This document shows, piece by piece, positions 1 to 11,126 of a stretch of DNA of 11,126 nucleotides. The translations under genes and the position numbers were made by a program. This DNA is from a virus. Lineage: Duplodnaviria; Heunggongvirae; Uroviricota; Caudoviricetes. The DNA lies in IMG/VR virus record IMGVR_UViG_2617270938_000004. One strand, written 5' to 3'. Position 1 is the stretch's first letter. Every line of letters begins with the position of its first letter. The notes under the pieces were generated by a model. It was not told the DNA's origin. It saw only the letters and a program-made list of their open reading frames with translations, and ran no database searches.

Positions 1-1194
1 ATGATCACCGACACAAAGCTCAGGAAGGCGCTCGGCAAGAAAAGAGATGATATCGAGATTATTTCTGATTCGCACGGGCTCAACGCCAGAATCAGCCAGG
101 CCGGAAAAATATCATTTTTCTATCGGTATCGCTGGGCCGGTAAAGCGGTAAAACTCAATGTTGGTGATTATCCTGCAATGAGTATCACCCAGGCAAGAGA
201 GCGTCGCCAACAATTCAGAAACTGGTTAACTGAGGGACTGGATCCGCGAGAGCAGGTGAAGCTGGATAAGCAGACCCGACAGGAAGCGATGTCCGTTGCC
301 GAAGCGTTCAATTACTGGATTGAAAGGCACTGTATCGCTAACGGGCTAGTTAAAGTCGATTACTATCGCCAGGTGTTTGAGAAACATATCGCCGAACCGA
401 TGAAGAATGTCAAAGTCGATAACACAGCGAAAATGCACTGGATCAACGTCTTCGATTCTATAGAAAGCAGGGTGATGGCTCATTACATGCTTTCGCTGTG
501 CAAACGGGCGTTTAGGTTCTGCGTTAACAGAAGTGTGATCGCCTCAAACCCACTCGAGGGATTACTGCCATCTGATGTCGGGCAAAAGCCTAAAAAGAGA
601 ACTCGCAGGATGGACGATGACGATCTGCGCAAAATCTATCAGTGGTTGAAAAGCCATATGTCGATAGAGTCCGTTTTCCTGGTGAAATTTATTATGCTTA
701 CCGGATGCCGTACGGCTGAGATTCGACTTAGTGAGAGATCATGGTTTCGATTGGATGATAATGAGTGGGTCGTGCCTGCGGGCAGTTATAAAACTCGGGT
801 ACATATTAGAAGGGGACTCTCAGACGCCGCCGTTAACCTGGTCAGAAATCACCTCAAGAAAATAAACACCAATCACCTGGTGACTTCACAACGTAAAATT
901 GATGGCGGGATCAAAGATTCGCCCGTTCATTCACCTGTGGCATCCAATTACGCCCGTTCTATTTGGAATGGAACAGGTATGGCAGAGTGGTCGCTTCATG
1001 ATATGAGGCGGACGATAGCCACAAATCTCTCTGAGTTAGGTTGCCCGCCGCACGTAATTGAAAAGCTGCTCGGGCATCAGATGGTGGGGGTTATGGCGCA
1101 TTACAACCTTCATGACTATATCGATGATCAGAAACACTGGCTCCGCGTTTGGCAGAGCCATCTTGAAGAGATCATCGGAGAGCCCTTCAGTTAA
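1..1194 (+). CDS. int: Tyrosine recombinase / phage integrase, P4-type
   Basis: 397-aa ORF. N-terminus '[33 protein letters not shown]' resembles the arm-binding domain of P4-family integrases. Catalytic-domain signatures are present: 'TGCRTAEI' (Arg), 'HDMRRT' (His-x-x-Arg), 'LLGHQ...MAHYNLHDY' (His/Tyr). Stop TAA at 1192-1194. Upstream RBS and att site are outside the window. Confidence 0.9.
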
Positions 1195-1388
1195 TTTATC
1201 TTCTTTTTATCCTCCCACTCTTTGATTGACTCAGAGCGCCAGCGGTTAGGGTTGCCGGGCCAGTCAGGGGGTGGGAACGGGCATACGAAGCCCCGAGGCA
1301 TTGTGTCTGCACTTTGCCATGACCAAAGGGTTTTGCGTGAAATTTTGTAGCGACTGGTCAGGTCTGACGTTACCAAAATATCATCCAT
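1191..1388 (-). CDS. alpA: AlpA-family prophage regulator / excisionase-like HTH protein
   Basis: The ATG at 1388-1386 gives a 65-aa protein '[59 protein letters not shown]', which fits the AlpA pattern (HTH, then FP-P, then W-x-x-E-x-x-W). The ORF-track start at 1433 is a TTG with no RBS; the ATG at 1388 is preceded by a purine-rich 'AGAGAGAG'. The stop overlaps the int stop. Confidence 0.7.
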
Positions 1389-1429
1389 AGCTCTCTCTAG
1401 TTGCCCGTTCGGGCCATTCAAAATCTTTT

Positions 1430-1672
1430 TCAACCAACCTGCCCGGGCAGGGAGCGGAGACGGCGCATGCCGGTCATCGCTGTGGCCACGTAGCTCGCCT
1501 TTCGGTTCACCACCTCCACCCAGACTTTCACGCCTTCAACCTTCACCGTATAAGTCTCTTTCATCTTGCTTCGCCCATAGTCGCCATATGTTTGCAAGTG
1601 AGCTGCCAGCGCGATGTCGCATGCTTGGCGAGCTAAAGGTGATTGCTTACTTCCTCGATTGATCAGTCGCAT
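1430..1672 (-). CDS. Hypothetical small protein (80 aa) in the recombination operon
   Basis: ATG at 1672-1670 preceded by a strong Shine-Dalgarno 'AAGGAG' with a roughly 6-nt spacer (reverse complement of 1673-1684). It sits between the RecT-like and AlpA-like genes on the same strand. No family recognised by eye. Confidence 0.55.
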   Translation of the reverse strand: MRLINRGSKQSPLARQACDIALAAHLQTYGDYGRSKMKETYTVKVEGVKVWVEVVNRKASYVATAMTGMRRLRSLPGQVG

Positions 1673-1710
1673 ATAATCTCCTTGAGGGAGGGTTACCCCT
1701 CCCGGTCTCG

Positions 1711-2829
1711 TCAGGCCACGTATTCCGGTTTCATATCCGCCAGGGTGATGCTGAATTGATCGTGCAGTTCATCGCCTAAGTGACGCTTTGAAGATGCAAG
1801 CATGCGCTCGGCTTCAGCGAACCGTTCGGCTGCATGCGGCTCGTCGGGCTGGGGCAGGGATTTAATAGCCTCCTCAACCTTGTTGCGTGCATCCACTAGG
1901 TAATAACGCTTTACGGCTTTGTTTTTCAGCTCGGTGAATAGTGCGGATCCCAGCGTAGCTTTCGCCGTTTCAATGTCGGCACGCAGCGATTTGGCGCTAT
2001 CCACGTCCTGAGCAGATTCGATGCGTTCGCGGAAATCATCGGCAAGAGAGTCGACATTTACCGACGATTCCTGTGCGCTTTGCGTGGTTGTGACGGTGTC
2101 ACCTGAGATATCAGCCAGGCTAACGCGTTGCGGCGTTGGGTTGATCTCTTTTTCTGTGCGCTGTTCAATCTCATCAGGGGTGTACACACCAAGAACAACT
2201 GCAGGGCAATACAGGCGCGCCCAGTATTTGAGTGCCAGATAAGCGATCTGCTGTTTCGGGTTTGATACCCAAAGTGGAGAATTACGTGTGATTACGCTGG
2301 AGAGGAAAACAGGCTCTCCCCAGGTGATATCACTTTCACCGCGAATAACGGCACCTACCCGTACCGACAGTCCTTGTTCATCAGCACTTTCCCAACCGCG
2401 TACCATTTCTTTCTTGTCGTACGTCCCGCCACCTTTCGCAGGCTTTTTAACGGTTATCTCGCGGCTGCTGGCACATTTCGACCAGTCGCCCTCGTACTCA
2501 TAGTGAAAGCGGCCAACGATGGCGTTTGAGCTGGAGATCACCGCATTAACCAGTTGCGCTTCGTATCCCAGGACACCGTTAACCAGGTGCGTCTTTTGCG
2601 CCACGGCGTAAGGGTTCATACCCCACTGCATCGCCTGCATGATGATGGCCATGCAGTCTGCCGGATTGCCGCGGAGGTGCTCAGGCACCGTTACGGCTGC
2701 CTGTGCCATCAACCCGGCGACAGACTGAAGCTGGGTTAAAGCCTGCACGTTGAAAATGGCATTGCTGGCTGAGATCGTGTTTGGAGTCTGCTGTTCAGCG
2801 GTTACGATATTCGTGTTTTCCATCATCAT
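1711..2829 (-). CDS. RecT/Bet-family single-strand annealing protein
   Basis: 372 aa. Segments 'GNPADCMAIIMQAMQWGMNPYAVAQKTHLV' and 'LWVSNPKQQIAYLALKYWARLYCPAVVLGVYTPDEIE' parallel lambda Bet as I remember it ('...FIALLIVANQYGLNPWTKEIYAF...', '...PWQSHPKRMLRHKAMIQCARLAFGFAGIYDKDEAE'). RBS 'AAGGGGA' lies directly upstream of the ATG triplet at 2829-2821, and the upstream gene's stop is only 5 nt away. Confidence 0.8.
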   Translation of the reverse strand: MMMENTNIVTAEQQTPNTISASNAIFNVQALTQLQSVAGLMAQAAVTVPEHLRGNPADCMAIIMQAMQWGMNPYAVAQKTHLVNGVLGYEAQLVNAVISSSNAIVGRFHYEYEGDWSKCASSREITVKKPAKGGGTYDKKEMVRGWESADEQGLSVRVGAVIRGESDITWGEPVFLSSVITRNSPLWVSNPKQQIAYLALKYWARLYCPAVVLGVYTPDEIEQRTEKEINPTPQRVSLADISGDTVTTTQSAQESSVNVDSLADDFRERIESAQDVDSAKSLRADIETAKATLGSALFTELKNKAVKRYYLVDARNKVEEAIKSLPQPDEPHAAERFAEAERMLASSKRHLGDELHDQFSITLADMKPEYVA

Positions 2830-2834
2830 TCCCC

Positions 2835-3704
2835 TTATGCCTGAGTACGCAGCGCTTCAAGGCGGCGCAGGTCGAAGTCGTTCAGTTCGTCGGTGTAGTC
2901 AGCAGTGATTGGCGCTGGCCATTCACCTGTGTCGAATCCGGTTGCGATATTGCGCATCGCTTTGCGGTACTCGAGCATACCCAGCTCCAGTAGTTCAGCG
3001 GATGCCTCGATGATGGCGATCCAGTGGTAGTTCTCGTCTTTGTTGACGAAAATCCAGAAGAACTGATCCAGCGCTGCGGTTTCGCAGTACATAGCCGCGC
3101 TCAGGTGATAATCACGTTCAATAATTTCCCGGTGTAGCCTGGCGCGCAGGCTTTCCTGCTTAACATTCCACATGCTGATGGTTTTCAGGTCAGCACCGAT
3201 ACGCACGCCGTCTAGGTCGATCTCAAGGTCAGGGCGCACACGAACTTCCAGTCCCGTCTCCTCGTCAAAGCCAAAGTAGCTCACCTCAACGGCGCGGCTC
3301 GGGTGGGTTAGCAGCATGCCTGCGGTCGGGTGCGAGAGCAGTGCTGACTGAATTGCCTGCGCGGTGGCAAGTTGCTGGTGGGTAACCAGCACTTTCCCTT
3401 CCGGGTTGTTGCGCCACGCATCGAGCAGCTCGTCGGCGAACACTGCATCTGGTTTGACTGCCTTCACGGCCTGAATCAGATCGGCCTTCGTGCCAGAGAC
3501 TTTCAGCGGTTGCAGCTTCTGAGCTTCCTGCGCGACCAGGTCAGGATTGATAATCGCAAGTTGTTCGAGTAGTGCGTCGCGGCTGCCGCTGGTTTTAATC
3601 TGCGCTGGCAGGGTGGCGTTGTACTCTTTGATGCACGCCTTCATTGCTGTTGCTGTCTTCTTCTGATCTGCATCGATACGTTGGAATTCAGCTGGCAGCG
3701 CCAT
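2835..3704 (-). CDS. PD-(D/E)XK-superfamily exonuclease (RecE/YqaJ-like partner of the annealing protein)
   Basis: Motif 'VEVSYFGFDEETGLEVRVRPDLEIDLDGVRIGADLKTIS' fits the E...PD...(D/E)xK nuclease core. The gene is immediately upstream of, and co-oriented with, the RecT-like gene. Start placed at the ATG at 3704-3702 ('MALPAEFQ...'); the ORF track extends to a GTG at 3764, which would overlap the divergent GP46-like gene. Confidence 0.7.
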   Translation of the reverse strand: MALPAEFQRIDADQKKTATAMKACIKEYNATLPAQIKTSGSRDALLEQLAIINPDLVAQEAQKLQPLKVSGTKADLIQAVKAVKPDAVFADELLDAWRNNPEGKVLVTHQQLATAQAIQSALLSHPTAGMLLTHPSRAVEVSYFGFDEETGLEVRVRPDLEIDLDGVRIGADLKTISMWNVKQESLRARLHREIIERDYHLSAAMYCETAALDQFFWIFVNKDENYHWIAIIEASAELLELGMLEYRKAMRNIATGFDTGEWPAPITADYTDELNDFDLRRLEALRTQA

Positions 3705-3709
3705 ATAGT
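3681..3709 (+). promoter_or_regulatory. Candidate sigma70-like promoter (TTGGAA-N17-TATAGT) reading toward the baseplate genes
   Basis: 'ttggaa' at 3681-3686 and 'tatagt' at 3704-3709, separated by 17 nt, about 50 nt upstream of the ATG at 3759. Pattern match only. Confidence 0.2.
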
Positions 3710-3758
3710 TCTGCGCCGTTTCATCCAGGCTAACGGCGTACTGACATCTGAGAATGAT

Positions 3759-4121
3759 ATGCACACGGCCATAATTATCAGTTTGTTTACTGACGGACTG
3801 GCGCGCGCTGATGATGATTATGAAGGAACTGACCGCCGCGGCTGGTGGGGGGATCTGGACAACGACCGGAATATTGGCTCAAGGCTGTGGCTACTGCGGC
3901 GTGAAAAACTGACGCGCGAAGTGGCGATGAGAGCTGAAGATTATGCCGAAGAGGCTCTGGCCTGGATGAAGTCGGATGGTATTGCAGCAGCGATAGAGGC
4001 TCAGTCAGAGATTGTTTTCCCGAATAGGCTGAACCTCATCATCCGGTATTTGCCGCCGGCGGGGGACTGGCAGGAGTTCAAATTCTTCTGGCTATGGGAG
4101 CAACTGAATAATGCCATTTAA
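3759..4121 (+). CDS. Phage GP46-family baseplate protein (Mu gp46-like)
   Basis: 'AIIISLFTDGLARADDDYEGTDRRGWWGDLDNDRNIGSRLWLLRREKLT' matches the GP46 family signature (SLFTD...RRGWWGD...GSRLWLL). First ATG in frame is at 3759; the ORF-track start at 3681 is a TTG. The N-terminus may be shortened relative to family members. Confidence 0.7.
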   Translation: MHTAIIISLFTDGLARADDDYEGTDRRGWWGDLDNDRNIGSRLWLLRREKLTREVAMRAEDYAEEALAWMKSDGIAAAIEAQSEIVFPNRLNLIIRYLPPAGDWQEFKFFWLWEQLNNAI

Positions 4122-5259
4122 GCGGAAAACACTGAGCGAGCTCCGGCAGGAGAATCGCCAGTTTATGCAGGCAGAGCTTGAAAGTGTTGGCGCGCTGTTA
4201 CGGTTTGGCAACCTTAAGGTGCTCGCTGATATGGATGCGGGCATGGCCCATCTGCACTACGCCTACCTGGATTATATTGCCCGTCAGAGCACGCCTTTCA
4301 CCTCTACCGATGAGTGGCTTGCCGGATGGATGGCGCTAAAGCAGATTTACCGAAAAGCCGCAACGGCAGCACGCTCTCCGGCGGCGACCGTTACCGGAAC
4401 GCCGGGGAAAACACTGTCAAAAGGGGCGGTGTTAAACCGTGATGATGGTTACCAGTACACAACCGATGATGCCATAACGATAAACACTGCTGGCAGTGCG
4501 TCGGTTGCTGTAACAGCGGTTTTGCCGGATATCACAGACGATGTGACAGGAGGAGGCACTTCCGGAAATGCCGATGCTGGCACCATTCTTACACTGGATG
4601 CTAATGCCCCCGGCATAGACAGCTCGGTTACGCTGATTGAGCCCGCCACCGGCGGCGCCAACATTGAAAGTGAAGAGGATTTCCGATTACGTGGTCTGCT
4701 GGCGTATCAGAATCCCCCGCAGGGCGGGAGTGACACTGATTATAAAAGCTGGGCTTTATCCGTGTCGGGGATCACCAGGGCATGGATACGGCGCCGGGGG
4801 ATGGGGCCGGGTACCGTGGTGATTTACATCATGTGCGACGGCGATGATAAAACCAATCATGGATTCCCTGCAGGAACTGACGGTGTCTCTCAACTGGAAG
4901 AGTGGGGGGCTGTAAAAGCCACCGGGGATCAGGGGAGAGTTGCCGATTATATGTATCCGCTTGCGCCGGTTACCTCCCTTAACTATGTCTGCTCTCCCAT
5001 CGAACGCGTTATCGATTTTGAAATAAGCGGGATATCTGATGCCGACAGCGCAACGACTGCGGCCATTGCTGATGCGATTGACGGGGTATTGTTTGAATCT
5101 GCTAACCCGCTCGGCACAGGGAAAATTTACCTTTCAGATCTCAACCGTGCGATAGGGGATGTTGCCGGTACTTCAGGTTATATCCTTGTGTCGCCTTCTG
5201 CGAATATTGAGCCGGGAGTTGGGGAGCTGGCTGTTCGTGGTGAGGTGAACTACACATGA
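4111..5259 (+). CDS. Baseplate J-like protein (Mu gp47 / e14 JayE-like)
   Basis: 382-aa ORF whose start overlaps the GP46-like gene by 11 nt. Order GP46-J-DUF2313 is as in Mu-like and e14-like tail modules. Judged Baseplate_J-like by overall similarity; HMM confirmation needed. Confidence 0.8.
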   Translation: MPFKRKTLSELRQENRQFMQAELESVGALLRFGNLKVLADMDAGMAHLHYAYLDYIARQSTPFTSTDEWLAGWMALKQIYRKAATAARSPAATVTGTPGKTLSKGAVLNRDDGYQYTTDDAITINTAGSASVAVTAVLPDITDDVTGGGTSGNADAGTILTLDANAPGIDSSVTLIEPATGGANIESEEDFRLRGLLAYQNPPQGGSDTDYKSWALSVSGITRAWIRRRGMGPGTVVIYIMCDGDDKTNHGFPAGTDGVSQLEEWGAVKATGDQGRVADYMYPLAPVTSLNYVCSPIERVIDFEISGISDADSATTAAIADAIDGVLFESANPLGTGKIYLSDLNRAIGDVAGTSGYILVSPSANIEPGVGELAVRGEVNYT

Positions 5260-5930
5260 GCCTTTTCTCAACAGACGATTATCAGAAGGCACTGCAGGCG
5301 CTTATCCCCACCGGCCGAGCGTGGACACGGGATCCAAAAGCTGTTCAGGCCGCTGTACTGCGGGCCATTGCGGCCAGTTTCCAGCGAAGTGATAACGACG
5401 CACTTGCATTGCTGCGCGGTGCCTTTCCAAAAACTGCGACGATTATGCTCACCGAGTGGGAAAAAACACTCGGCTTACCTGATGATTGCTCAATTGGCGA
5501 AGTGGATACGATTGCGAAGCGTCAGTCTGCCATTGTATCGAAACTCATCAGCACCGGCGGGCAGTCAAAGAGCTATTTCATCAGTATTGCCGCAGCAATG
5601 GGTTATACGATTTCGATTAAGGAATACCGGCAGGCGCGTGCTGGCTTATCGGTATGTGGTGACGGGCTAAATGGGGATGACTGGCCATTTGTCTGGCTGG
5701 TAGAGGCAGAAGACACAACGATAACTTATGCCCGTGCAGGTCTGAGTTATTGCGGCGATCCATTACGCTCCTGGGGTAATCGCCAGCTTGAGTGCCGGAT
5801 AAATGCCCTTGCCCCCTCATACACCCTGGTGAAATTTGGCTATATCTATTTCGGTTTTAACGATGAGGGGGTTTACGAAGTCACGCCTGAGTTTGCCAGA
5901 ATATTTGATATCGCTTCCGGTTACGTTTAA
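5256..5930 (+). CDS. Phage tail protein, YmfQ/DUF2313 family (Mu gp48-like)
   Basis: 224 aa with an ATGA start/stop overlap with the upstream J-like gene (ATG 5256-5258, TGA 5257-5259). N-terminus 'MSLFSTDDYQKALQALIPTGRAWTRDP' resembles the YmfQ family. It lies directly upstream of a tail fibre gene. Confidence 0.8.
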   Translation: MSLFSTDDYQKALQALIPTGRAWTRDPKAVQAAVLRAIAASFQRSDNDALALLRGAFPKTATIMLTEWEKTLGLPDDCSIGEVDTIAKRQSAIVSKLISTGGQSKSYFISIAAAMGYTISIKEYRQARAGLSVCGDGLNGDDWPFVWLVEAEDTTITYARAGLSYCGDPLRSWGNRQLECRINALAPSYTLVKFGYIYFGFNDEGVYEVTPEFARIFDIASGYV

Positions 5931-5956
5931 TTCAGACATTTAAAAAGAAGGTTTAT

Positions 5957-6742
5957 ATGAGAAAAGTTGGCAGTACAACTGACACCGCTGATGCTAATGG
6001 TGAATACACTAATGGTAATGTCGCTAATGGTATTTCACCGACAATAATTAATGCTGAGATGATGAATACCTTTCAGCGTGAGCTGGTAAACGTTGTTGAG
6101 GGCGCGGGGCTTGAGCTTGATCCTGATGATGATTCACAGGTTCTTAAAGCGATTGGTGGCGGTCGCCTGCTTAATATTGTCACCTTTACTAAGTCAGGGA
6201 CTTACACTCCAACTAAAGGGACGAAAAGAGTGCGGGTGAAAGTTTGGGGAGCGGGGGGAGGTGGCCAGAATGCTCCAGTTAGTGTGGGCGCATCTGGAGG
6301 TTGTGCTGGTGGATTTTCGGAAGGGTTATTTAATATTTCTGATAACGAAACTATATCTGTGACGATAGGTACTGGTGGCAGTGCTGTTGCTGCTGGTGTC
6401 TCGTCTAAAGGCGGGAATGGTGGTGATACAAGGTTCGGGAGTTTAATCTCAGCTACTGGAGGGAGTGGTGGCGGGGCTACAGTTCCTGCTGGAGGTATCG
6501 GAAGTGGCGGGAACATTTTAAATATTACTGGCGGAATATCTCAAGGTGGTCTGTATTATGGTTCTGATGCTTTTATTGGCGGGGCTGGGGGATCTGCATT
6601 TTCATCAACGGGTGGCAATGGCCACTTCGGTAGTTCTGGCGATGATGGCGGTTTCCCCGGCTCAGGTGGTGCCGGGGGGAATGGTAACTATTCATCAGGA
6701 AAAGGAGCGAATGGTTTAGTTTACCTTGAAGAGTTTTCCTGA
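5957..6742 (+). CDS. Tail fibre protein with conserved N-terminal fibre domain and glycine-rich C-terminal region
   Basis: 261 aa. RBS 'GAAGG' 5 nt before the ATG. N-terminus 'GISPTIINAEMMNTFQRELVNVVEGAGLELDPDDDSQVLKAIGG' matches the conserved tail-fibre N-terminal motif seen in P2/Mu/e14-type fibres. C-terminal 170 aa is Gly-rich ('VKVWGAGGGGQN...GGSGGGATVPAGGIGSGGN...'). Codon usage is AT-rich relative to the upstream baseplate genes. Confidence 0.75.
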   Translation: MRKVGSTTDTADANGEYTNGNVANGISPTIINAEMMNTFQRELVNVVEGAGLELDPDDDSQVLKAIGGGRLLNIVTFTKSGTYTPTKGTKRVRVKVWGAGGGGQNAPVSVGASGGCAGGFSEGLFNISDNETISVTIGTGGSAVAAGVSSKGGNGGDTRFGSLISATGGSGGGATVPAGGIGSGGNILNITGGISQGGLYYGSDAFIGGAGGSAFSSTGGNGHFGSSGDDGGFPGSGGAGGNGNYSSGKGANGLVYLEEFS

Positions 6743-7812
6743 TTATTTTTGCTTTGAGCGTCCGCCCTTATTTTTGCTCTAATTTTAATTAGTGGCTTTT
6801 CTATTAATATTACACAAACGATCCCAAGTGCAATTGATATTGGGTAGCCTAATAAAAAGATGGATAAGCCACGATTTTCACCACCAATAGCAAGCCATGC
6901 TAGAAATCCACCAAAATATTGACAAAGAAAAATTGGATAGGCCAGGTCACCAAACCACTTGAGTATTTTCTCAAGATGTATGTTTGTCTTTATTTTTAAT
7001 AATACCAGGGTTGTAAACAATGCTATTACATTATTGGTGTAGTAAAGTATTATGTTGTACTGACCTAATGCATTAATTGTATATAAATGCCAATTGGTAA
7101 TAAAAATCCCGATGCAAATAAATGTTATTAAAAAAGCTTTGTGTGGAGAAAGATACATAGCTTTGAACTTTCTATGGGCAAAATAACCCAGAGAACCCAT
7201 GCTAAAAGGAAGTGTTGCAGCAAGGAATGGGAAATACGCCATATCAAAAGAATGGTGTACTACATATACGTAAGCATGATAAAGCAGTGAAAGCAGAATC
7301 GACGTAATGGCTGTAAATTTATTTCGGGCTATGAAAAGCCACAATAAAAAATAACATGTTATCTCAACACCCACTGACCATGATGATGTGACTATTCTGA
7401 ATCTATTACCATCAATAGCAAAGTGATAAATGGATGAAAAGGCACCGAATGGATTTGCTACAGCATTATCAGAAAGGAAAGCCCAGGGGAAGATTAAGAG
7501 GTTTCCTAATAAATCTCCAGGTAAGAAATTGCCTGTCCAGTTTGAGTGGAATTCCTTTGCGGATGGAATTAATTTTATAATAAGAAAGCCCATGACGAGA
7601 AAAAATATATATGCCGGGAATAACCTCAGCATTCTATTTTTCCAAAACATAGAGAAGTTGAACTTGTATGTTTCATGCAAAATGTATGTTATTAAAAAAC
7701 CACTAATAACATAGAAGCAATTCACTGCAAAGTTGCCAAGTGCAGGTATGCGAGCCGTTAAGTGAAAAGCAATGACGCACGATGCCAAAAAAAACCTTAT
7801 TAGGCCAAGCAT
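6721..7812 (-). CDS. Acyltransferase family 3 integral membrane protein (O-antigen / polysaccharide O-acetyltransferase-like, Oac/OafA-type)
   Basis: 363 aa and highly hydrophobic. Family hallmarks: 'FHLTARIPALGNFAVNCFYVISGFLITY' and 'FWKNRMLRLFPAYIFF', comparable to the 'G-x-x-GVD-x-FFV-x-SGFLIT' and 'R-x-x-R-I-x-PxY' motifs. The 3' end overlaps the convergent tail fibre gene by 22 bp. Confidence 0.85.
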   Translation of the reverse strand: MLGLIRFFLASCVIAFHLTARIPALGNFAVNCFYVISGFLITYILHETYKFNFSMFWKNRMLRLFPAYIFFLVMGFLIIKLIPSAKEFHSNWTGNFLPGDLLGNLLIFPWAFLSDNAVANPFGAFSSIYHFAIDGNRFRIVTSSWSVGVEITCYFLLWLFIARNKFTAITSILLSLLYHAYVYVVHHSFDMAYFPFLAATLPFSMGSLGYFAHRKFKAMYLSPHKAFLITFICIGIFITNWHLYTINALGQYNIILYYTNNVIALFTTLVLLKIKTNIHLEKILKWFGDLAYPIFLCQYFGGFLAWLAIGGENRGLSIFLLGYPISIALGIVCVILIEKPLIKIRAKIRADAQSKNNQENSSR

Positions 7813-8075
7813 TATTTTATCTCCGCGCCAATATCGCGCATTTTATTTATTACATTGTTAAGTTGCTCATCAGACAGAACAAGCTGAGCTGCAATATAAA
7901 ACAGTATGTGTCTTGACATTACCCTGGGGCTCTCTCCGCCAGTGTATTTCCGCCATTGGCTATCGCTGGCTACACCTGCGAGCCCTGCCATTTGGTTTCC
8001 GGAGTAATTTAGTGCGGATTTCAGTCTGGCTAAATCTTCCTGCGTTGGAGGGGTGTATTTATTTATTAAAATCAT
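7812..8075 (-). CDS. XRE-like helix-turn-helix DNA-binding protein, co-transcribed upstream of the acyltransferase
   Basis: 87 aa from the ATG at 8075-8073. 'TQEDLARLKSALNYSGNQMAGLAGVASDSQWRKYTGGE' fits a Cro/C1-type HTH. Its stop overlaps the acyltransferase start in a TAATG arrangement (7810-7814, minus strand). An 87-codon ORF in AT-rich DNA is unlikely by chance. The ORF-track start at 8099 is a GTG without RBS. Confidence 0.55.
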   Translation of the reverse strand: MILINKYTPPTQEDLARLKSALNYSGNQMAGLAGVASDSQWRKYTGGESPRVMSRHILFYIAAQLVLSDEQLNNVINKMRDIGAEIK

Positions 8076-8107
8076 TCTCTTATTTAACCGTTTAAACACG
8101 TAAGGCG

Positions 8108-8136
8108 ATGTTAGCCCTGAAGGGGCGGGGCGTCAA
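8108..8136 (-). promoter_or_regulatory. Candidate sigma70-like promoter (TTGACG-N17-TAACAT on the minus strand) for the HTH-acyltransferase operon
   Basis: Reverse complement of 8131-8136 is 'TTGACG' and of 8108-8113 is 'TAACAT', with a 17-nt spacer, about 33 nt upstream of the ATG at 8075. Pattern match only. Confidence 0.2.
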
Positions 8137-8176
8137 TCTTAATTGCTTCATTGAAAAGATGAAGACAGGAACAGGT

Positions 8177-10360
8177 ATGGACAAAAGATATAATACCGGC
8201 AATCCAAGACCTTCAAATAGCATGAAGGATCTGAATGATAACGCCCTGGCGTACGATGATTTCCTGAACAGCGAAAGAGATACTTTTATAGATCGTTTTG
8301 GTAACGCCCAGGATACGATAATTGGGGCTACTAAAAAAATGGCAGCTGCTACCGACGCTGTTATTGATGAAGCCCGCCAAAACCTGATCCCTCTGAGCAA
8401 GCAATACATGACGCTTGCTGATGCACAGGCAGATATTGCTAATATCCCCGAGGGGAGCACTACTTATTATCGCAGCCCGGATGACAGCGCCCTCGCGATC
8501 GAGGTCATGAACGTTGGCGGAACGTTGCAGCCAACCGGTCGCAGGATGATTTCTGCTGGATATGTTGACGCGCTGAGAGATTTGGTTGCCACTGAACTGG
8601 CGAAAATTATGGCTTTCGGTGCTGCTCAGACTACCGATGCATACCCAGATATTGCTGAGCTCATTCTTGATAGTGTAGGGCATGCCGTTTATCGCCGTTA
8701 TACCGATGGCACGAGCCAGTTTCCGGCATTGATGATTGGTTCAGGGATTGAGCTTGTGCAAATTGCAGGTGGAGGATTTGTCTGCCAGATGCGCGCCACT
8801 GGTGAAGAAATATTTAACATTTCTGCCCTTGGCAATCTGACACATGGCAGCCTGACCACGTGGTTTGCTGATGATGACAGTGTCAGTGACTATTCTGAAA
8901 TACATATGGACGGACAGGGGAGAATTTTTCGGCGAGTTCGCACAGATGGTACCGTGGAGCAGCTGGGCGATGACACACCTGATGATGACGCCTCTGAATT
9001 CCCAATGGTTGCTTCAGTTGATGGAAATATCATTGCGGTAGATGGCAGCGATGTAACTCAGATCACGAACGACTCCGGAGTTTCAAATATTGCGCCAGTG
9101 GCATATGCGGAATTTTTGCGTTATTTGTCGAATGTCAGCGGCAACTACATCACTTATCGATCCACTTATGACGGGAATTACCGGGCGCGAGAGTCATTGC
9201 GCTTTCTTATTCACCTGATTATAACTGGTCAGTCTCTTGCTGCAGGCGGTTCAACGCAAGCACAAAGCCCTGTAACGACAACAGCGCAGGCAGATTACGG
9301 CATACTCTCGTTTGAGACCGGCCCGAAAGTCGATTTTAAGTATGACACGCTGAATGAATCGCTCCTTGAGGCTGTCATCCCATGCCGGGAGAATGCTGGG
9401 ACGCGGCCTGGACAGGAGTCGCCATCAAGCGGTATGGCGTTTAAAATTCATGATCTCACCGGGCATACGGTTCTGGTTTCCGATGCGTGCTCATCCGGTA
9501 CTGCAATCGCAGACATTTCATCCGGTTCAGCGACTTTTACTGGTGCAACGAAAATGATTCAGTCAGCTGTAGCCATGGCTGAAAAGTTGGGTATGCAGTA
9601 TGTTCCCGTAATGGTGCTTATCCACGGCAACCAGAATGCAGCAGCAGGCACATCTATATCCAGTTATCGCGCCGCAATGGAGACTCTCCGTGCTCAGTAT
9701 GAGTCTGTCATTAACGCGGCAACAGGAAAAAGCCAGTCGCTTCACATGTTTGTAGGCCAGTTATCTAATACCATTCCATACGGCGGAACTGCCGGTTCGA
9801 CCAAAACTAATAACATCGGTATCGCACAATATCAGGAAGCCCGTGATAACGCATTAATCCATCTTGCCAGCGCACAGTATGCCCGCCCGTATTCAGACGG
9901 TGAGCATCTGACCAGCGCAGGGTATCGGACAGAAGGCGAAGTTATTGGCGCGGTGGTTGGTGGGTGGCTGAATGACAATACAAAATCCGCGCTTGTGCCG
10001 ATAGAGTCTGGTGTTGTGCAGTCAGGAACCACAATCACTATACCAGTGGCGGGTTGTGTTGGTGATCTCGTGATTGACACCTCGAGGGTTACCGATCCAG
10101 GCAACTACGGCTTTGTCCTGACCGGGGCCACAATTGCTTCGGTAGCCGTTAGCGGCAGCGGATCAGCAGCAAAAATAGTTATCACCAAGACCGATTCTAC
10201 CACTGCGACGGCGATATCTTATGCAAGCCAGGGGATTGCCGGACAAAACCCCGGCCCTGTAACCGGTTCGCGCGGGTGTATCAGAGATTCCCAAACAGGG
10301 ACGTCACTATCCGGCCTGCCTCTCTATAACGACCTTTGCGTTTTCTCCATCCAGCTTTAA
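8177..10360 (+). CDS. Putative tail fibre / tailspike-like protein with SGNH-hydrolase (sialate-O-acetylesterase-like) domain
   Basis: Start placed at the ATG at 8177 (AGGA 6 nt upstream); the ORF track begins at 8108. Catalytic-type motifs: 'LIITGQSLAAGGS' (GQS at 9227-9235, the SGNH block I serine), 'VLIHGNQNAAAG' (block III-like), 'DGEHLTSAGYRTEGE' (DxxH block V; Asp 9896-9898, His 9905-9907). No N-terminal signal peptide. C-terminal 130 aa is Thr/Ser/Gly-rich and looks beta-rich. It sits in a tail-fibre locus. Confidence 0.7.
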   Translation: MDKRYNTGNPRPSNSMKDLNDNALAYDDFLNSERDTFIDRFGNAQDTIIGATKKMAAATDAVIDEARQNLIPLSKQYMTLADAQADIANIPEGSTTYYRSPDDSALAIEVMNVGGTLQPTGRRMISAGYVDALRDLVATELAKIMAFGAAQTTDAYPDIAELILDSVGHAVYRRYTDGTSQFPALMIGSGIELVQIAGGGFVCQMRATGEEIFNISALGNLTHGSLTTWFADDDSVSDYSEIHMDGQGRIFRRVRTDGTVEQLGDDTPDDDASEFPMVASVDGNIIAVDGSDVTQITNDSGVSNIAPVAYAEFLRYLSNVSGNYITYRSTYDGNYRARESLRFLIHLIITGQSLAAGGSTQAQSPVTTTAQADYGILSFETGPKVDFKYDTLNESLLEAVIPCRENAGTRPGQESPSSGMAFKIHDLTGHTVLVSDACSSGTAIADISSGSATFTGATKMIQSAVAMAEKLGMQYVPVMVLIHGNQNAAAGTSISSYRAAMETLRAQYESVINAATGKSQSLHMFVGQLSNTIPYGGTAGSTKTNNIGIAQYQEARDNALIHLASAQYARPYSDGEHLTSAGYRTEGEVIGAVVGGWLNDNTKSALVPIESGVVQSGTTITIPVAGCVGDLVIDTSRVTDPGNYGFVLTGATIASVAVSGSGSAAKIVITKTDSTTATAISYASQGIAGQNPGPVTGSRGCIRDSQTGTSLSGLPLYNDLCVFSIQL

Positions 10361-10373
10361 AGGACTGTAAATC

Positions 10374-11126
10374 ATGACTACCCGCTTTTATATTGATAAC
10401 GGTGTGACAGCCACGCGTTACCTTGACACTTACCCTTATCCAAACGACATCACCCAACTTCCGGCTTTAATACCGGGGATTATCCTGCAGGCTGATTTTG
10501 ACGTAAAAGACACTGCATCATTAACCAGAAACCGGGTTGGAGCTGCTATGTCCGTTGTTGGCTCTCCTGTTCTTGGTGATTACGGCGTCAGCCTCACTGA
10601 GGCTAACCACCTGGATACAAACATCGACATAGCAGCATATAACGGCAGCGATCTGACAATGGTGACAATAGCTGTCCATCCAGGGGTAATTGGTGCTGTT
10701 GTGGGCCGGGTGCAGATGAACGCGCCACAGCGTACTCGTGGTACACAAACTACGGCTACAGCGTGGAGAGCTAAATGGTTGACTGCAGCAGGTGCAGCAC
10801 AACAGGCCGACCTTATCCCGTCTACTGCCGCAATTGATGGCGAAATGGCAGTCAGTCGGTTTGTGCGAGACAACGGTAGCGGATCAATGCTGACTAAGCT
10901 TGATCTGCCACGCACATCACAGTCAGCAACCCGCACCGCAGCGACGACTCCTTATGCTGTACCTTCGTCAAAAATTCTGCTGGGCGGTTCTGTCGAGGGA
11001 GCCACGACTGCCACTATCTTCATGCGGGCATGCCTGATTGTATCTAGGGCAATAACGGATGTTGAAATGGCAACTATTTACACCTATTACAAAAATTATT
11101 ATCAGCTGAAAGGCAAAAACATTTAA
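10374..11126 (+). CDS. LamG-like (concanavalin A-like lectin fold) domain protein, putative carbohydrate-binding tail accessory protein
   Basis: 250 aa. RBS 'AGGA' 9 nt upstream, immediately after the esterase stop. C-terminal 'ILLGGSVEGATTATIFMRACLIVSRAITDVEMATIYTYYKNY' resembles the LamG/Laminin_G_3 terminal motif (iG....F.G.IDEvRiYnRALs..Ei..lY). Assignment by motif only. Confidence 0.5.
   Translation: MTTRFYIDNGVTATRYLDTYPYPNDITQLPALIPGIILQADFDVKDTASLTRNRVGAAMSVVGSPVLGDYGVSLTEANHLDTNIDIAAYNGSDLTMVTIAVHPGVIGAVVGRVQMNAPQRTRGTQTTATAWRAKWLTAAGAAQQADLIPSTAAIDGEMAVSRFVRDNGSGSMLTKLDLPRTSQSATRTAATTPYAVPSSKILLGGSVEGATTATIFMRACLIVSRAITDVEMATIYTYYKNYYQLKGKNI

Follow-up and report, generated by a model that had tools for sequence, protein, structure and literature searches.

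A variable tail-fibre tip and antisense acyltransferase operon at a probable recombination hot-spot in an Escherichia coli prophage

The stretch of viral DNA analysed here (the window; 11,126 nucleotides, Caudoviricetes, IMG/VR record IMGVR_UViG_2617270938_000004) contains an AT-rich island within its tail-gene region, in which the receptor-binding portion of a tail fibre gene is joined to two genes on the opposite strand that encode an acyltransferase of the AT3 type and an 87-aa protein (orf87). We consider it probable that a recombination hot-spot exists here, in an Escherichia coli prophage that has a Mu-type baseplate and resembles the Serratia phage vB_SspM_BZS1 (BZS1), and that the island is its variable content. 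The hot-spot would be bounded by two conserved anchors, namely codons 1-66 of the fibre gene and the initial ~125 codons of the neighboring spike gene, and the slot between them would accommodate a receptor-binding tip together with a convergent two-gene antisense operon, in which orf87 is translationally coupled to the AT3 enzyme. An original prediction made from the DNA sequence had described the region as a horizontally swapped module composed of a fibre and a moron, and this reading is supported by the mosaic breakpoints, by the occurrence of a collinear block on an unrelated baseplate, and by the alternative alleles described below.

Breakpoints and alternative content of the fibre slot

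Boundaries were mapped by blastn comparison of the window with other loci. Three E. coli prophages (L002, L005, and L006) share its tail genes at ~80% identity, with DNA identities of 79-83% over the baseplate region, for which the corresponding value in a further prophage, L015, is 99%. Homology between the window and L002 or L005 is lost at positions 6153 and 6156, respectively, inside the fibre gene at codon ~66; it returns at 8186 and 8165 and stops again at 8554 and 8541, in the region encoding the spike N-terminus. The homology break in L006 occurs at 5780. The slot contents of these three prophages all differ, comprising other fibre tips and other cargo, with a G+C content (GC) of 0.32-0.34 for every cargo gene. 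One of the ~80% relatives contains a gp53-like tip and another AT3 gene on the plus strand; one contains a fibre and a chaperone followed by minus-strand HAD and GT-A genes; and L005 (from E. coli L37) contains a 180-aa fibre and a minus-strand 431-aa protein without known function. The latter, a soluble protein encoded at 8916-10211 of the minus strand of its locus (GC 0.34), did not significantly match any family in Pfam, NCBIfam, or PHROGs.

More closely related prophages reveal smaller exchanges at the same position. L015 is 99.1% identical to the window over 3731-6227 and 90% identical over 7616-8527, and differs only between 6228 and 7615, where alleles of 37% and 48% identity take the place of the fibre tip and of most of the acyltransferase, respectively; the fibre anchor is retained, as is orf87, the latter with identical protein sequence. 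In L086, which has a near-identical backbone, the fibre is kept to approximately residue 96, beyond which lie a different glycine-rich tip and a DUF1796 gene. Across all of the alternative slot cargo (AT3 on the plus strand, the 431-aa protein, HAD plus GT-A, DUF1796, and AT3 plus SASA), GC ranges from 0.31 to 0.38. Collectively, the breakpoints in these relatives therefore define a variable segment of approximately 6157-8164, with nested breakpoints, and a second variable segment begins at approximately 8445-8554, within the spike gene. The edges originally proposed, at 5931 and 8100, are thus displaced into the fibre gene at codon ~66 and into the spike N-terminus at approximately 8165-8186, although the expectation that related prophages would hold different cargo at this position is borne out by L002, L005, L006, L015, and L086.

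The closest non-identical acyltransferase (64% identity) occurs in two loci, L007 and L008, on an unrelated baseplate whose components match the Pfam families Phage_Wedge1, Sheath_initiator, E217_GP41, and Pam3_gp18. Contiguous 68% DNA homology to the window extends over 6160-8007 in these loci, and the tip and orf87 are 78-79% and 72% identical at the protein level, with the AT3 protein at 64%. The L007 fibre has an unrelated 129-aa N-terminus ahead of its 78-79% identical tip. As in the window, the orf87 homologue of L007 overlaps the start of the acyltransferase by 1 nt. No spike neighbors the L007 cassette, and chaperone-usher fimbrial genes (SCPU/PapD_N/Usher) come next.

We looked up seven distinct contexts of homologues by exact protein, and in six of these a gene of the same AT3 clade closes a tail-fibre cluster and is convergent with its final fibre or chaperone gene; these six have backbones of the Mu type, the lambda type (GpJ), and the Pam3/E217 type. 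The seventh context (L016) is a remnant, int-orf87-AT3, from which the fibre gene is missing. Most IMG/VR loci likewise place the AT3 gene convergently at the end of the fibre cluster. For distant AT3 homologues from other phyla, 7 of 10 convergent neighbors match phage PHROGs, and other distant homologues appear to lie in same-strand gene clusters. Among phage records, the best tblastn match to the acyltransferase is only 28% identical, and no near-identical DNA was found among sequenced phages apart from one irrelevant 179-bp match.

The cassette is present at >98% identity in 32 E. coli genomes. In at least 10 of these carriers, J and YmfQ have been lost and the acyltransferase, orf87, and the spike are intact (for example at positions 6158-10429 of L085, from E. 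coli PCN061), a retention in decayed prophages that hints at host-side selection. One decayed lineage (L093, L096, and L097) has a RusA-fibre fusion at window position 6087; its 280-aa "fibre" was considered as a second backbone for the near-identical cassette and rejected, being a product of this deletion fusion. Compared with the prophage of E. coli HS (L089), the window has 4 differences in 2,145 positions over 5931-8075 (0.19%), with 0.86% divergence in the baseplate genes and 3.3% in the spike N-terminus. This lower divergence of the cassette is seen relative to HS but not relative to ECCTRSRTH03, and we therefore make no general claim about it.

Base composition and codon usage

The best two-breakpoint segmentation of raw GC identifies an island at 6680-7921, with GC of 0.352 inside and 0.514 outside. 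By a two-breakpoint likelihood scan, its log-likelihood ratio is 58, whereas the highest value reached when 60-nt blocks were shuffled 200 times is 20.9. The predicted AT-rich island is therefore significant, but the drop in raw GC covers only the acyltransferase and part of orf87. Similarly, the fibre, acyltransferase, and putative helix-turn-helix (HTH) gene, here orf87, had all been described as markedly AT-rich, which holds for the acyltransferase (0.352) and orf87 (0.42-0.43) but not for the raw GC of the fibre (0.485); values for the spike and for gp46, J, and YmfQ are 0.50 and 0.51-0.54, respectively. The figures of 16 versus 36 G+C per 60 nt that had been cited represent extreme lines, as the means are 21 for the acyltransferase, 29 for the fibre, and 32 for the baseplate genes.

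A foreign composition of the fibre is apparent at synonymous sites rather than in raw GC. GC at third codon positions (GC3) is 0.328 for the fibre and 0.327 for the acyltransferase, and falls to 0.27 for non-glycine codons of the C-terminal part of the fibre, whose bulk GC is near normal because 60 of the fibre codons specify glycine. Over the conserved Mu-type baseplate backbone to the left of the cassette (3731-5930, plus strand), GC and GC3 are 0.51-0.54 and 0.51-0.59. With the 15 head-to-baseplate genes of the intact prophage (described below) serving as the reference, synonymous codon-usage z-scores are −4.0 for fibre codons 67-260, −3.7 for the acyltransferase, and −3.4 for orf87; the scores for fibre codons 2-66 and for the spike N-terminus are −0.4 and −0.2, and that for the rest of the spike is −2.0. 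The compositional break coincides with the homology breakpoints. Neither GC nor codon usage is uniform across the region, and because the E. coli host genes beside the prophage have GC of 0.46-0.55, the host is not AT-rich, such that the original prediction withstands both of these comparisons.

It does not follow that the AT-richness marks a recent import. Homologues of the acyltransferase have GC of 0.32-0.49 in hosts or contigs of 0.44-0.70, falling below their surroundings in most loci examined despite mutual identities of only 33-64%, and low GC is thus a long-standing property of the cargo pool. In all hosts examined, it is a persistent trait of this surface-modifying cargo, and as such neither dates a recent import nor reveals its source.

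Genes of the cassette and their surroundings

The fibre gene (5957-6742, plus strand) encodes a 261-aa protein that matches the Pfam family Gly_rich_2 (38.8 bits; cut-off 24.3). Its N-terminal anchor, corresponding to codons 1-66 (5957-6156), is conserved across relatives and would constitute the left recombination arm. It shares 77% amino acid identity with residues 1-66 of BZS1 p23, and many database fibres match only these N-terminal ~66 residues, at 80-90% identity. At 77-90% identity, the anchor precedes at least four different families of C-terminal domain, which agrees with the earlier suggestion that a conserved fibre N-terminus lets the module plug into the baseplate. The remainder of the gene (6157-6742) encodes the variable tip. 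An AlphaFold model of the fibre has a mean predicted local distance difference test score (pLDDT) of 84.9, exceeding 90 over the tip, and contains helices at residues 33-49 and 61-67; the domain boundary that follows the second helix coincides with the DNA breakpoints. The best match to this model in the PDB is the fibre of cyanophage Pam3 (7ypx_A; Foldseek E-value 2.6e-10, probability 1.0, TM-score 0.53-0.55), and further matches include Bxb1 tail-tip proteins and the TNF-like/glycine-rich domains of ALK and LTK. Thus, the tip models as a TNF-like and glycine-rich receptor-binding domain of the Pam3 type. There is no dedicated gp25- or Tfa-like chaperone next to the fibre, whose stop codon overlaps the acyltransferase gene with no open reading frame (ORF) between them.

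The cargo, or moron, gene (6721-7812, minus strand) encodes a 363-aa protein whose residues 4-337 align to positions 6-324 of the 326 in the Pfam model Acyl_transf_3 (PF01757), with a score of 56.3 bits (cut-off 31). It also matches PHROG 3333 ("O-acetyltransferase"; E-value 6.6e-23), and its PHROG matches include proteins annotated as O-antigen acetylase. The motifs that Pearson et al. defined for characterized AT3 carbohydrate acetyltransferases are an R/K-X10-H motif with an invariant histidine in transmembrane helix 1, an FFXISG-type motif in transmembrane helix 2, and RXXR (PMC7448272). The corresponding sequences in the window protein are R6-X10-H17, F33YVISG38, and R60MLR63, and H17, F33, S37, R60, and R63 are invariant or nearly so in 30 homologues. 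A crude Kyte-Doolittle scan with a strict threshold found six segments, the family having approximately ten transmembrane helices, and no fused SGNH domain is present. Taken together, these features identify the protein, at the level of its sequence, as an AT3-only membrane O-acyltransferase. Its gene lies on the minus strand amid plus-strand tail genes, in a prophage context that is complete in E. coli 20KM2222, and we infer that it encodes an O-acetyltransferase that is expressed in lysogens and modifies a surface glycan.

The small ORF upstream (7812-8075, minus strand) probably encodes a regulator or leader of the antisense operon. It comprises 87 aa, not the 95 originally assigned, as indicated by the RefSeq start and by the L007 homologue, and its stop codon shares 1 nt with the start codon of the acyltransferase (TAATG). 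The protein belongs to phrog_20491 (E-value 3e-30), has 194 homologues of constant length that are named XRE/HTH by NCBI, and is 67% identical to BZS1 p25, annotated as an "XRE family transcriptional regulator". Its own profile scores are weak (HTH_31, E-value 0.04, below the cut-off; RstR, E-value 0.06), and its model consists of five helices at low confidence (pLDDT 58). A Foldseek search with this model yielded no significant match, the top matches being XRE-type repressors at E-values >1, and a PDB sequence search with orf87 likewise gave none. The HTH label in the original prediction accordingly draws on the naming of homologues but not on significant profile or fold scores, and is weakly supported. 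Between orf87 and the spike lies a divergent intergenic region (8076-8176), presumably containing promoters, in which a sigma-70-like site occurs on the minus strand at 8136-8108 (TTGACG/17/TAACAT); no significant RNA structure was detected in this region.

Phages of Serratia, other Enterobacterales, Burkholderia, and Bordetella (L017, 4290-4773; L007, 5522-6001; L087, 6650-7123; L019, 3523-4276; L018, 3776-4267) contain a conserved two-gene leader, which consists of a 57-58-aa protein with a C-terminal transmembrane segment and an 87-aa XRE-like protein and lies ahead of cargo as varied as AT3, AT3 plus SASA, an SGNH hydrolase, and an unknown gene. In Burkholderia phage phiE131, the cargo that follows the orf87 homologue is an SGNH hydrolase gene, which is convergent with a tail fibre gene; in a Bordetella phage, it is an unknown gene. 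The small transmembrane protein, termed p26 in BZS1, is present in L007, L087, and BZS1 with 67% mutual identity, and no homologue of it was found in the window by tblastn with the L007 protein. In L087, a Serratia fonticola prophage, the slot operon (4855-6653) contains an AT3 gene and then a gene for a separate 254-aa SASA/SGNH protein, an arrangement that resembles a fused AT3-SGNH acetyltransferase, such as OafA, divided into two genes.

To the right, the spike gene (8177-10360, plus strand; RefSeq start 8177) encodes a 727-aa protein. Its N-terminal anchor (8177-8541), the putative right recombination arm, is conserved across relatives, with 77-87% amino acid identity to the N-termini of other spikes, and is also common to BZS1 p27; several different spike C-termini follow this anchor. 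The second variable cassette (8542-11126), where relatives diverge, comprises the C-terminal part of the spike and a 250-aa ORF (10374-11126, plus strand). This C-terminal version of the spike occurs in only 1 of 5,426 complete E. coli genomes. It is 23-26% identical to BZS1 p27 and to the esterase spike of HS and PCN061 (E-values 9e-9 and 2.7e-12) and carries GQS and DGEH motifs, although the spike yielded no Pfam match at E-values up to 1 and no PDB sequence match; it probably represents an esterase of the SGNH/SASA type. A 122-aa ORF on the minus strand at 8092-8460, antisense to the spike N-terminus, lacks an annotation where RefSeq records contain this sequence, and it is probably spurious.

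The prophage in the window is a deletion remnant. Positions 3731-11126 match, at 99.9% identity, a prophage of E. coli 20KM2222 that adjoins yciI-tonB and is a complete myovirus type, with genes for the capsid, sheath, tube, Mu-type baseplate (Gp44-48), fibre, and spike and for a small recombinase. The same level of identity (99.9%) is found between positions 1-3735 and integrase/RecT/RecE-like regions in many E. coli genomes, and no complete E. coli genome contains the whole window. At 3725-3740, the integrase/xis-like/RecT/RecE-like block (1-3735) is fused directly to gp46 (from 3731), so that no early, lysis, head, sheath, or tube genes are present. The baseplate genes that remain, all on the plus strand, are gp46 (3681-4121; Pfam GP46), J (4111-5259; Baseplate_J), and Gp48/YmfQ (5256-5930; Phage_Mu_Gp48). 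An Rfam scan of the entire window produced no match, nor did PADLOC defence models applied to five cassette and flanking proteins, and NCBIfam gave no significant match for the fibre, acyltransferase, orf87, or spike.

Proposed function, alternatives, and known systems

The arrangement described above has a precedent in BZS1, in which the gene order is fibre p23, AT3 p24 (minus strand), XRE p25 (minus), p26 (minus), and esterase spike p27 (Bujak et al., 2020; PMC7556043). The authors of that study noted the antisense trio of acyltransferase, HTH, and small transmembrane genes along with similar clusters in Serratia prophages, speculated on O-antigen conversion, and stated that they had "no clue" to the role of the leader gene (PMC7556043). 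In both phages, a Mup45-48 baseplate is followed by a short fibre, by an acyltransferase gene in antisense orientation with an XRE-like gene ahead of it, and by a large spike; the fibre anchor (77%) and orf87/p25 (67%) have the identities given above, and the spike N-terminus is common to both. They differ in that the fibre tips are unrelated, the BZS1 AT3 protein belongs to another clade (BLASTP E-value 0.015), p26 of BZS1 has no counterpart in the window, and the fibre and acyltransferase genes of BZS1 are separated by a 30-bp gap instead of overlapping at their 3′ ends. Our finding mainly extends an arrangement that was already noted in this phage, and that belongs to a known type of phage lysogenic conversion, to E. 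coli and other hosts.

Two other acyltransferases of temperate phages, Oac of Shigella phage Sf6 and OafB of Salmonella prophage BTP1 (GtrC family II), acetylate the O-antigen and thereby block the tailspike of their own phage (PMC9558356). Like the window protein, both are AT3 membrane proteins that contain the R/K-X10-H, FFXISG-type, and RXXR motifs and are transcribed opposite to or apart from structural genes. However, their relatedness to it is at the family level only (PHROG/Pfam); oac adjoins the integrase gene rather than residing within the fibre cluster, and OafB carries a fused SGNH domain, unlike the AT3-only window protein. For the fibre, the closest comparisons are Gp38-type glycine-rich adhesins and gp24 of cyanophage Pam3 (7ypx/7yfw), whose glycine-rich lattice is said to recognize the host receptor through a variable distal tip (PMC9608196). 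An N-terminal helical anchor, a TNF-like domain, and a glycine-rich lattice occur in the same order in gp24 and the window fibre, but sequence identity is ~24%, a gp25-type chaperone gene is lacking beside the window fibre, and the baseplate that suits the window anchor is of the Mu type and not of the Pam3 type. The L007 copy of the tip, by contrast, is found on a baseplate with Pam3_gp18 and E217_GP41 matches. More generally, the conserved N-terminal anchors and swapped C-terminal domains of both fibre and spike resemble the modular exchange of receptor-binding proteins in tailed phages, with the difference that the exchanged segment in the window also carries nonstructural genes on the opposite strand.

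We propose that slot content would be exchanged by homologous recombination within the conserved anchors, and that transcription of the operon in the prophage would be separate from that of the late genes and run in the opposite direction. The enzyme would then move an acyl group, probably acetyl, from cytoplasmic acyl-CoA onto a surface polysaccharide, either the O-antigen or another envelope glycan. Acylation of this glycan would be expected to alter phage adsorption and serotype, as with Sf6 Oac and BTP1 OafB, and late transcripts that read through the cassette would run antisense to the operon.

The 22-bp overlap between the 3′ ends of the fibre and acyltransferase frames (6721-6742) that had been reported previously is real, as judged from ORF coordinates and sequence, with ...LEEFS* antisense to ...QENSSR*. 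The same overlap exists in L007 and L008, where the C-termini ...EEFS* and ...QENSS- are conserved, and in 11 of 11 near-identical IMG/VR contigs. It is not universal, however, being replaced by a 68-69-bp gap in L015 and L112, a 17-bp overlap in L011, and an 8-bp gap in L009. A promoter and terminator scan revealed no terminator at the overlap, with counts at or below chance. Acyltransferase-sense RNA around this site folds better than shuffled sequences (z = −3.6; window 6655-6677, 6693-6702/6733-6742), and a functional RNA fold was therefore considered; the inverted repeat that brackets both stop codons is not conserved in L007, where the arm pair is absent, and the conserved GC-rich hairpin nearby encodes the conserved glycine motif FPGSGGAGG. 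We rejected this candidate in favor of a coding by-product.

Five distinct pairs of a glycine-rich tip with an AT3 protein of the same clade were found, and their identities to the window pair are roughly co-ordered (78, 37, 38, and 33% for the tip; 64, 48, 44, and 35% for the AT3 protein). A more specific and rather speculative extension of our proposal, which we consider unlikely as a whole, is that tip and enzyme form a matched "key plus lock-changer" pair. The enzyme would acylate the very glycan bound by the tip, such that a new specificity would bring self-exclusion in a single recombination event; the convergent overlap would enforce mutually exclusive expression through antisense late read-through; and the orf87 leader, with or without the small transmembrane protein, would be a general switch for prophage-expressed cargo, conserved from Enterobacterales to phages of Burkholderia and Bordetella. 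Several observations weigh against parts of this scheme or of the hot-spot proposal itself. Tips of 45-48% identity are paired with unrelated cargo in L086 and L087 (DUF1796, or an unrelated AT3 plus SASA), and close AT3 homologues are found beside fibres of the S74 and gp53 types; the pairing, though recurrent and frequent, is thus not obligate. Gp38-type glycine-rich tips bind outer-membrane proteins in T-even phages, and the receptor of the tip need not be the enzyme-modified glycan. Moreover, the HTH assignment of orf87 is weak, promoter-like sites in 8076-8176 are not above chance (4 found, 7.5 expected), and only two serotyped lineages occur among the 32 carriers, both O9, so that the target may be the O-antigen or a common glycan. 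Strains of the Res13 carrier lineage are titled O9:H10 in their records, and E. coli HS, also a carrier, is O9:H4.

The principal alternative, to which we attach substantial probability though somewhat short of even, is that tip and acyltransferase are mere neighbors in a general moron hot-spot, co-transferred through adjacency, with the enzyme providing a host benefit that has no connection to the receptor of the fibre, such as serotype change, immune evasion, or exclusion of other phages. The many unrelated cargo types held by the slot, the SGNH or unknown cargo that follows the orf87 leader in Burkholderia and Bordetella phages, the retention of the cassette in decayed prophages, and the pairing of AT3 homologues with several fibre types would all be expected in that case. 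The co-ordered identities of the five pairs would not, nor would the L015 exchange, which replaced the tip and acyltransferase only. Alternatively, the partner of the acyltransferase might be the downstream esterase-type spike instead of the short fibre; the spike would deacetylate the receptor glycan at entry, with the prophage enzyme re-acetylating it, as the BZS1 authors speculated. We regard this as improbable, slightly more so than the matched pair. An AT3 gene does adjoin an esterase-like spike in the window, in HS/PCN061, and in BZS1, and the GQS and DGEH motifs and distant homology of the window spike accord with such a role; yet the same acyltransferase (>98% identical) resides elsewhere beside spikes with SGNH/GDSL, TolB-like, CotH kinase, or "sialate O-acetylesterase" C-termini, the L007 cassette adjoins fimbrial genes instead of a spike, and the esterase assignment is without Pfam or PDB match.

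Two further explanations concern the island as such. Its AT-richness could be a by-product of amino acid composition, with no bearing on origin, as the acyltransferase is a hydrophobic membrane protein in which Ile, Phe, Leu, Asn, and Lys are abundant, with low GC at first and second codon positions (GC1 0.376, GC2 0.352). GC3 is equally low, however, synonymous usage deviates strongly, the soluble fibre tip deviates as much as the membrane protein, and the compositional break falls at the homology breakpoints, results that largely refute this explanation and leave it very little probability. Least probable of all is that the island is a self-mobile element, such as an insertion sequence, transposon, or integron-type cassette, that entered the tail region by insertion. 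The island does form a discrete block in its composition and is encoded on the opposite strand, as such an element might be, but its edges fall within coding sequences, where conserved protein domains end, and no transposase or recombinase was found within 5931-8176. The original prediction had pointed to possible short direct repeats at 5931-5956 and 8076-8110, but no direct or inverted repeats joining these intervals were found.

The locus represents a well-bounded example of the way in which receptor specificity and host surface modification may be exchanged jointly between prophages, with breakpoints that are resolved to a few bases and fall where protein domains meet. The 87-aa leader gene, conserved ahead of diverse cargo, offers a tractable target for study. 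If tip and enzyme do form a matched pair, then the sequence of the cassette would predict both the host range and the exclusion spectrum of the phage, which would be useful for phage typing and for the engineering of receptor-binding proteins.

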